Of a stretch of DNA of 64,000 nucleotides, positions 6,008-6,171 are shown piece by piece. Below the pieces are notes generated by a model that was given only the letters and a program-made list of their open reading frames with translations, was not told where the DNA came from and did no database searches. Both the position numbers and the translations under genes were made by a program. Numbering within the stretch: position 1 is the first letter of the stretch; every line of letters begins with the position of its first letter. The DNA is taken from NCBI RefSeq assembly GCF_057098645.1, contig NZ_CM169472.1; one strand, 5' to 3'.

Positions 6008-6171
6008 TTATTACTTCCAAGTCCATCCGAGTAAGTCCGATTATCCATTAAAAATCAATACTTTCAGCGATTTCTACGATCTTGGATCGTCCGAGGTTGT
6101 CCGTTGAAATCCGGATGTCATTGGGGGCATAATTGGGGGCATCTTAACTTCGATTAGAAATGTGCCCCCAA

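Follow-up and report, generated by a model that had tools for sequence, protein, structure and literature searches.

A satellite phage P4 prophage at leuX

The window, by which we mean the whole 64-kb stretch of DNA analysed here, carries a leuX gene whose 3' end has served as an integration target. Judged from its sequence, the element inserted there, at 6008-20343, is a 14.3-kb prophage of the satellite phage P4, with int, vis, alpha (primase), sid, delta and psu lying between att sites at the tRNA gene. The features that delimit it, together with the two genes that matter most for what follows, are listed here.

5923-6007, + strand: leuX, tRNA-Leu(CAA) (ARAGORN; Rfam tRNA, 59.4 bits)
5988-6007, + strand: attL core GAGTCCGGCCTTCGGCACCA, the 20-bp P4 attP/attB core, identical to the 'attP core sequence' in X51522 and X05947
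6160-7446, + strand: int, P4-type tyrosine integrase (open reading frame; 83% nucleotide identity to P4 int)
12757-13023, + strand: vis (P4 orf88), AlpA-family excisionase/regulator (intact 88-aa open reading frame; PF05930, 7e-21)
20325-20343, + strand: attR core copy GAGTCCGGCCTTC-GCACCA, 19 nt, lacking one G relative to the tRNA 3' end

In BLAST comparison with P4, the core plus int (5984-7371, of which 6008-7371 spans attP to int) is 83% identical, 10174-13715 (the block in which vis sits) matches P4 11624 to 8061 at 96%, and 16353-20343 matches P4 8068 to 4078 at 98.4%, with 7372-10173 and 13716-16352 being the segments that do not derive from a P4 match. Open reading frames sized like psu, delta, sid, vis, orf151, orf106 and alpha are present, the P4-type sizes in the element being 190, 166, 250, 88 and 777 aa. 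Adjoining int, a complete type II restriction-modification system at 7614-10021 replaces P4 cII/beta/gop; it encodes a control (C) protein of 67 aa, a restriction enzyme of 272 aa (PADLOC REase_II, 5.5e-198; Pfam EcoO109I-like) and, on the minus strand, a C5 cytosine methyltransferase of 417 aa, and this cargo fits with the antiviral hotspots that P4-like satellites carry (PMC9122126). The other segment, a 2.6-kb insertion at 13716-16352 that is not in P4, lies at the P4 8061/8068 junction, with the cI/epsilon side on one flank and orf151 on the other, and comprises an IS21-family pair, namely an IstA-like protein of 548 aa (rve plus Mu-transposase C-terminal domain) and an IstB-like protein of 332 aa.

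A gap-free, mismatch-only search of the window returned no second copy of the core, because the core at attR has a 1-nt deletion; attR was located by reading around a one-mismatch match to the repeat motif at 20248. The stretch 20246-20343 reads cagtgggggcacaaaagggggcatatttc, 53 bp, and then GAGTCCGGCCTTC-GCACCA, which is the other attP arm of P4, and the leuX terminator has been displaced to this end of the element. The 19-nt attR core was also seen in three other E. coli strains, two of them with an unrelated island arm, and the attR of a thrW island (L091, 5147-5164) is likewise one base short at the corresponding position; an empty site and attL have the 20-nt core. We surmise that the one-base-short attR core either may keep islands from leaving or may have been inherited as a junction, and that this particular prophage may no longer use its arm sites for excision.

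Repeats in both arms of the prophage

The region between leuX and int had drawn the attention of an earlier note on account of a tandem repeat, the sequence of which is as described there: two copies of TTGGGGGCAT, parted by AA, occupy 6121-6142 with a 12-bp pitch, the end given in the note (6145) overshooting the repeat by about 3 nt. Read as an 11-mer, ATTGGGGGCAT is found at 6120-6130 and 6132-6142, 12 bp from start to start. What the note overlooked is that the tandem pair belongs to a larger set, with a third copy in inverted orientation and a further pair at attR (20248-20271), the latter being one of the places where it had proposed that the motif be sought. The inverted copy is exact (TGCCCCCAA, 6163-6171), lies over the first int ATG (6160) and ends directly before the second in-frame int ATG (6172); the sequence of 6117-6177, which holds all three copies, is gtcaTTGGGGGCATAATTGGGGGCATcttaacttcgattagaaATGTGCCCCCAAATGaag. 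Extended to 12-mers, the repeats are designated R1 to R5.

6121-6132, + strand: R1, arm repeat TTGGGGGCATAA, identical to the P4 'attP arm sequence repeat' 3954-3965; core conservation 0.93
6133-6144, + strand: R2, arm repeat TTGGGGGCATCT, identical to P4 repeat 3942-3953; core conservation 0.93
6149-6154, + strand: TTCGAT between R2 and R3, role unexplained; conservation 0.885
6160-6171, - strand: R3, inverted arm repeat TTGGGGGCACAT, identical to P4 repeat 3915-3926; core conservation 0.94
20248-20259, + strand: R4, arm repeat GTGGGGGCACAA, int-distal arm at attR, same as P4 4163-4174
20260-20271, + strand: R5, arm repeat AAGGGGGCATAT, int-distal arm at attR, same as P4 4151-4162

R1-R3 begin 113 bp to the right of the attL core; at the other end, a gap of 53 bp, the same as in P4, separates R4/R5 from the attR core copy to their right. 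The core that the repeats of the two arms flank has the sequence of the leuX 3' end. The cluster is real and not a product of chance. The exact sequence TTGGGGGCA occurs three times in 64 kb, all inside 51 bp, against 0.73 occurrences expected for the whole window; no other 9-mer in the window, with both strands counted, has three copies that fit within 60 bp without overlapping, and such triples arose in 1 of 200 simulated windows (first-order Markov, composition-matched). In a full-text search of the literature, the motif string turned up solely in papers on other subjects.

A run of 65 nt (6118-6182) is 100% identical to P4 within an int region that is otherwise about 83% identical, and this run, which brackets R1-R3, is the longest identical one in 6008-7371. 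In the P4 records X51522 and NC_001609, six 12-mers bear the label 'attP arm sequence repeat': two adjacent direct copies and an inverted copy at the int start flank the core on one side, two adjacent direct copies flank it on the other, and the sixth copy is inside int. R1-R5 are all identical in sequence to these annotated repeats, and the 11.6 kb of the P4 genome contain GGGGGCA at exactly six places, every one of them an annotated arm repeat. The proposal of the earlier note that the tandem repeat may be an arm-type site for the integrase is therefore supported by the annotation of the same 12-mers in P4. From their sequence and placement, the repeats make up a set of five predicted arm sites with consensus NNGGGGGCAYNN, R1-R3 being int-proximal (attL) and R4-R5 int-distal (attR). 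The sixth P4 repeat (TCGGGGGCATAT, 3621-3632, inside int) is not conserved, the window reading GCTGGTGCTTAT at about 6448-6460, and this int-internal copy is probably dispensable or fortuitous; because it is not conserved, not every annotated P4 copy need be functional.

Conservation and co-variation among related elements

With a 253-nt query comprising the arm and the int start, matches were obtained in 1905 of 5426 complete E. coli genomes, and in several of these the similarity starts exactly at the repeats. The loci that we sampled have the same repeat trio at the same positions; the trio is kept even in a leuX element with an otherwise unrelated arm and in three elements at thrW. Among relatives in IMG/VR with Int identities from 93% down to about 55%, the two direct copies persist at a 12-bp pitch, as do a TTCGAT-like spacer element and the inverted copy abutting the ATG. 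The look into other P4-like elements that had been proposed thus showed the motif to be present and its architecture to be conserved. When base match to the window was scored over 43 unique sequences, the repeat cores reached 0.93-0.94, whereas the coding sequence scored 0.83 over its first 150 nt, the spacer of the promoter 0.64 and the remainder of the arm 0.59.

The motif itself has drifted in a coordinated fashion, through GGGGGCA, GGGGCA, GCGGGTA and AGGGGTA, with one relative displaying GCGGGTA twice plus a matching inverted copy and another displaying AGGGGTA with its inverted copy. The most telling case is the thrW island of strain 95JB1 (L091), in which GGGGGTA is found at 5/5 sites on both arms: a tandem GGGGGTA pair lies 4.7 kb from the three int-proximal sites, and about 63 bp beyond this far pair is a degenerate thrW 3' end that constitutes the attR of the island. 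That all five sites changed together is as expected if one element-encoded protein reads all of them, and the sites are accordingly both conserved and co-varying as a set among related elements.

Two further observations concern the same stretch. All the integrase groups that we looked at, including those with as little as about 55% identity, have TTCGAT, TTCGGT or TTCGAC between R2 and R3. Five of the relatives in IMG/VR have an extra direct copy, GGGGGCActGGGGGCAtaattGGGGGCA, at a 9-bp pitch in the promoter spacer, about 60-50 nt upstream of int.

Overlap of the repeats with the int promoter and start codons

A promoter scan found a promoter for int, Pint, that is interleaved with the tandem repeat.

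6104-6133, + strand: Pint, -35 TTGAAA (6104-6109), 18-nt spacer, -10 CATAAT (6128-6133); 10/12 match

Both hexamers are at the same positions as the promoter features annotated in the P4 record X05947, and the -35 hexamer is 0.905 conserved across the 43 homologues. R1 lies in the Pint spacer and its 3' end supplies the 'CAT' of the -10 hexamer, R2 begins inside this hexamer and covers the expected transcription start, and R3 covers the start-codon region of int. The -10 hexamer straddles the R1/R2 junction, as it does in X05947, which bears out the other suggestion of the earlier note, that the repeat forms part of the int promoter. Core elements of a sigma-70-type promoter therefore overlap the arm sites, an arrangement to be looked for in a promoter autoregulated by Int.

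The int gene has two in-frame ATGs, at 6160 and 6172. The P4 records use the first (MCPQMKLNAR...); the second (MKLNAR...) is the start in RefSeq homologues and in all diverged relatives, and the conserved start of int is probably 6172 (MKLNARQ...). P4 Int is reportedly translated, possibly, from two start codons, and the pair of ATGs fits with this. In thrW relatives, a GGAG-like Shine-Dalgarno sequence is found just upstream of the inverted repeat, meaning that the distance from this sequence to the start codon is taken up by R3.

The arm-binding domain of Int

Next to the repeats is the gene for a cognate integrase with an N-terminal arm-DNA-binding domain (PF13356, Arm-DNA-bind_3, residues 3-89, E = 5e-27), followed by a central Phage_int_M domain (PF22022) and a catalytic Phage_integrase domain (PF00589). 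The DUF4102 domain is the arm-binding domain of genomic-island integrases (PMC8138268), and structures of homologous arm-binding domains have been solved (3JU0, 3JTZ/3RMP). In an alignment of this domain from seven integrases whose sites end in CA and three whose sites end in TA, a comparison in which phylogeny is a confounder, three columns separated the two groups perfectly (E/Q29 to L, M40 to L/F and R52 to L/M). These columns belong to the part of Int encoded at 6172-6440 in the window, and we put forward as a hypothesis that residues 29, 40 and 52 may act as specificity determinants.

Probable arm-type Int sites that may double as an operator

Taken together, these data make it very probable that the repeats are arm-type Int binding sites of the P4 prophage in leuX which also mediate repression of Pint by Int. 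That Int rather than Vis is the protein at these 12-mers is what we infer from the GenBank annotation, from secondary citations and from the comparison among elements; likewise, we presume that the Int allele of the window, at 83% identity, uses the sites as P4 Int does. As background, integrases of the lambda type are heterobivalent, bridging arm and core sites across bends induced by IHF. Each arm of the prophage has one IHF-consensus-like site between the repeats and the core.

6053-6065, + strand: IHF-consensus-like site AATCAATACTTTC, 12/13 match to WATCAANNNNTTR
20301-20313, + strand: IHF-consensus-like site TATCATTAACTTA, between R5 and the attR core, 12/13 match

We envision that the N-terminal domain of Int would bind the arm sites and that its other domains, for core binding and catalysis, would at the same time engage the crossover region in the tRNA 3' end, with IHF-induced bends between arm and core allowing one Int molecule to bridge the two. 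The complex of Int and IHF would serve integration and, together with Vis, excision. Since R1-R3 interleave with Pint and the start codon, occupancy by Int would also repress int: bound to R1 (spacer), R2 (start site) and R3 (start codon), Int would shut off int transcription in a loop of negative autoregulation. The N-terminus of Int is said to suffice for autorepression. Two papers state that in P4 the int promoter is repressed by Int itself, which binds DNA directly close to where int transcription begins (PMC2951348, PMC7286903), the sources named there being Pierson & Kahn 1987 and Piazzolla et al. 2006, and one of them also places a high-affinity IHF site in the P4 int regulatory region (PMC7286903).

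The earlier note had also raised the possibility of an accessory-factor site, and of its options this one has fared least well. The reading would be that the 12-mers bind Vis, an AlpA-family directionality factor, and not Int, with Vis bending the arm for excision and repressing Pint. It can draw on the intact vis gene at 12757-13023, on the statement that the typical targets of directionality factors are direct repeats spaced by roughly one helical turn (PMC7498355), a spacing to which the tandem pair conforms, and on reports that Vis footprints on P4 attP (PMC2603039) and represses Pint in P4 (PMC7286903). However, the motif is on both arms (three copies plus two) with one copy inverted, which is the pattern of Int arm sites and not that of a one-arm array; the direct repeats are not confined to one arm, and the inverted copy is distal to the core. 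Moreover, GGGGGCA is absent from the late-promoter region of the P4 genome, where Vis acts, and hence from its other targets there (PLL and Psid). PMC2951348 assigns direct DNA binding to Int and suggests, for Vis, an action on int mRNA. We consider an array of Vis sites at the 12-mers very unlikely for these reasons.

A second class of repeats in the int-proximal arm may provide a better address for Vis.

6021-6039, + strand: second-class arm repeat, copy 1, GTCcatCCGAGtaaGTCC, candidate Vis box; direct repeat family D1; adjoins the core
6088-6103, + strand: second-class repeat, copy 2, GTC...CCGAG...GTCC GTCCGAGgttGTCC, candidate Vis box; abuts the -35 hexamer

Vis is said to bind two distinct boxes between int and the core. 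As two distinct boxes in that interval, the second-class pair would be better placed than the arm 12-mers, and on this inference we regard 6021-6039 and 6088-6103 as candidate Vis boxes; analogous GTC...GTC pairs are at the same two positions in diverged thrW elements, with partial conservation. A comparison of the arm with the late-promoter region of P4 gave no pointer to Vis sites either way, the 8-mers common to both numbering 3, against about 3.4 expected by our own estimate.

Because R3 is an inverted copy, the functional unit might alternatively be an RNA hairpin in which R2 (or R1) pairs with R3, buries the int start codons and controls translation. The fold predicted for RNA of 6118-6185 has an energy of -24.8 kcal/mol (z = -3.6), and in it R3 is paired and neither ATG is accessible; a thrW homologue (L005) gives z = -3.5, the concerted changes among relatives keep R2 and R3 complementary, and, with the leuX terminator now at attR, read-through from leuX into the arm is conceivable. 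Yet the predicted transcript from Pint starts at about 6140, inside R2, and lacks the 5' arm of the hairpin (z = -0.55); another homologue (L009) gives z = -1.2 only; and a hairpin leaves R1 as well as R4/R5 and their concerted change at thrW unexplained. In a search with the curated covariance models of Rfam, tRNA alone passed the gathering score, the best non-tRNA hit being DicF with 17.8 bits against a gathering score of 48. A hairpin as the primary function, with a fold that reaches significance solely in transcripts beginning upstream of Pint and with no Rfam match, was therefore rejected as very improbable, and we grant it at most a secondary role for read-through transcripts.

Finally, a reading in which the repeats serve the promoter alone, or are a low-complexity run of Gs that arose by chance, and have no role in recombination is next to inconceivable: the -10 hexamer is indeed built from the R1/R2 junction and G-rich 7-mers are not rare (GGGGGCA occurs 11 times in the window vs. 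7.15 expected), but the clustered triple is unique in the window and was matched in 1/200 simulations, conservation of the repeats exceeds that of coding sequence, and the presence of the motif pair at attR, 14 kb away and with no int promoter, together with conservation across elements effectively refutes this reading.

Significance of the arm repeats

The feature is already known, having been described and annotated in GenBank for phage P4, and the arm repeats open no new question; their value here is mainly one of annotation. The arm repeats and the attR pair mark the exact ends of the prophage (6008-20343), the repeats identify the promoter/operator of int, and the recombination module is intact apart from the one-base gap in the attR core. 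The comparison among elements confirms that the arm sites co-evolve with the integrase and that their layout is conserved across leuX and thrW islands, and this layout could help to delimit P4-family islands automatically.

Two proposals go beyond what has been documented, namely an R2/R3 RNA hairpin that insulates int from leuX transcription and a code for arm-site recognition, and we rate them as speculative and unlikely. In a lysogen, read-through RNA from leuX would hold both arms of the -25 kcal/mol hairpin, burying both int ATGs. If this is true, the hairpin would insulate int from transcription of the tRNA gene, and a CA-to-TA code at residues 29, 40 and 52, if true, could make it possible to predict which arm sites the integrases of P4-family islands recognise, or to re-programme that specificity.

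Comparison with known systems

The closest system is attP and Pint of P4 itself (Pierson & Kahn 1987; X05947, X51522, NC_001609), which has the same R1-R5 in the same order, orientation and spacing from the core and agrees with the window element in both Pint hexamers and in where int starts. The two differ in that the int allele of the window is only 83% identical, the sixth repeat is not conserved, the attR core is one base short, restriction-modification genes take the place of cII/beta/gop, and the window element has an additional IS21-family insertion.

More distant is the arrangement in lambda (P1, P2 and P'1-P'3) and also in phages P2, 186 and HP1. In the lambda system, each arm has short repeats at a distance from the core, for which Int has an N-terminal domain of its own, and IHF sites lie between arm and core. 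The prophage shares these traits, its repeats being presumably read by the arm domain of Int and its IHF sites being consensus-like. In contrast, the motif of the prophage is a different one, one of its sites is inverted, and there is overlap of the sites with the promoter of int and with its start codon. The arm domain is also different, being of the DUF4102/PF13356 type with an extra strand and helix (PMC8138268).

The integrases of the HPI and HAI7 islands (3JTZ/3RMP and 3JU0; Szwagierczak et al. 2009) have an N-terminal domain homologous to that of the window Int (E = 2e-24 and 2e-16, respectively); these islands reside at other tRNA genes, and the likeness concerns the domain. With respect to regulation, the papers on intS of KplE1 (PMC2951348) and intI of PAI I-536 (PMC7286903) describe int promoters that lie within attL, where recombination proteins double as repressors, much as we propose for Int at R1-R3. 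IntS of KplE1 belongs to another integrase lineage with other site sequences, and for PAI I-536 the regulator demonstrated is IHF (PMC7286903).
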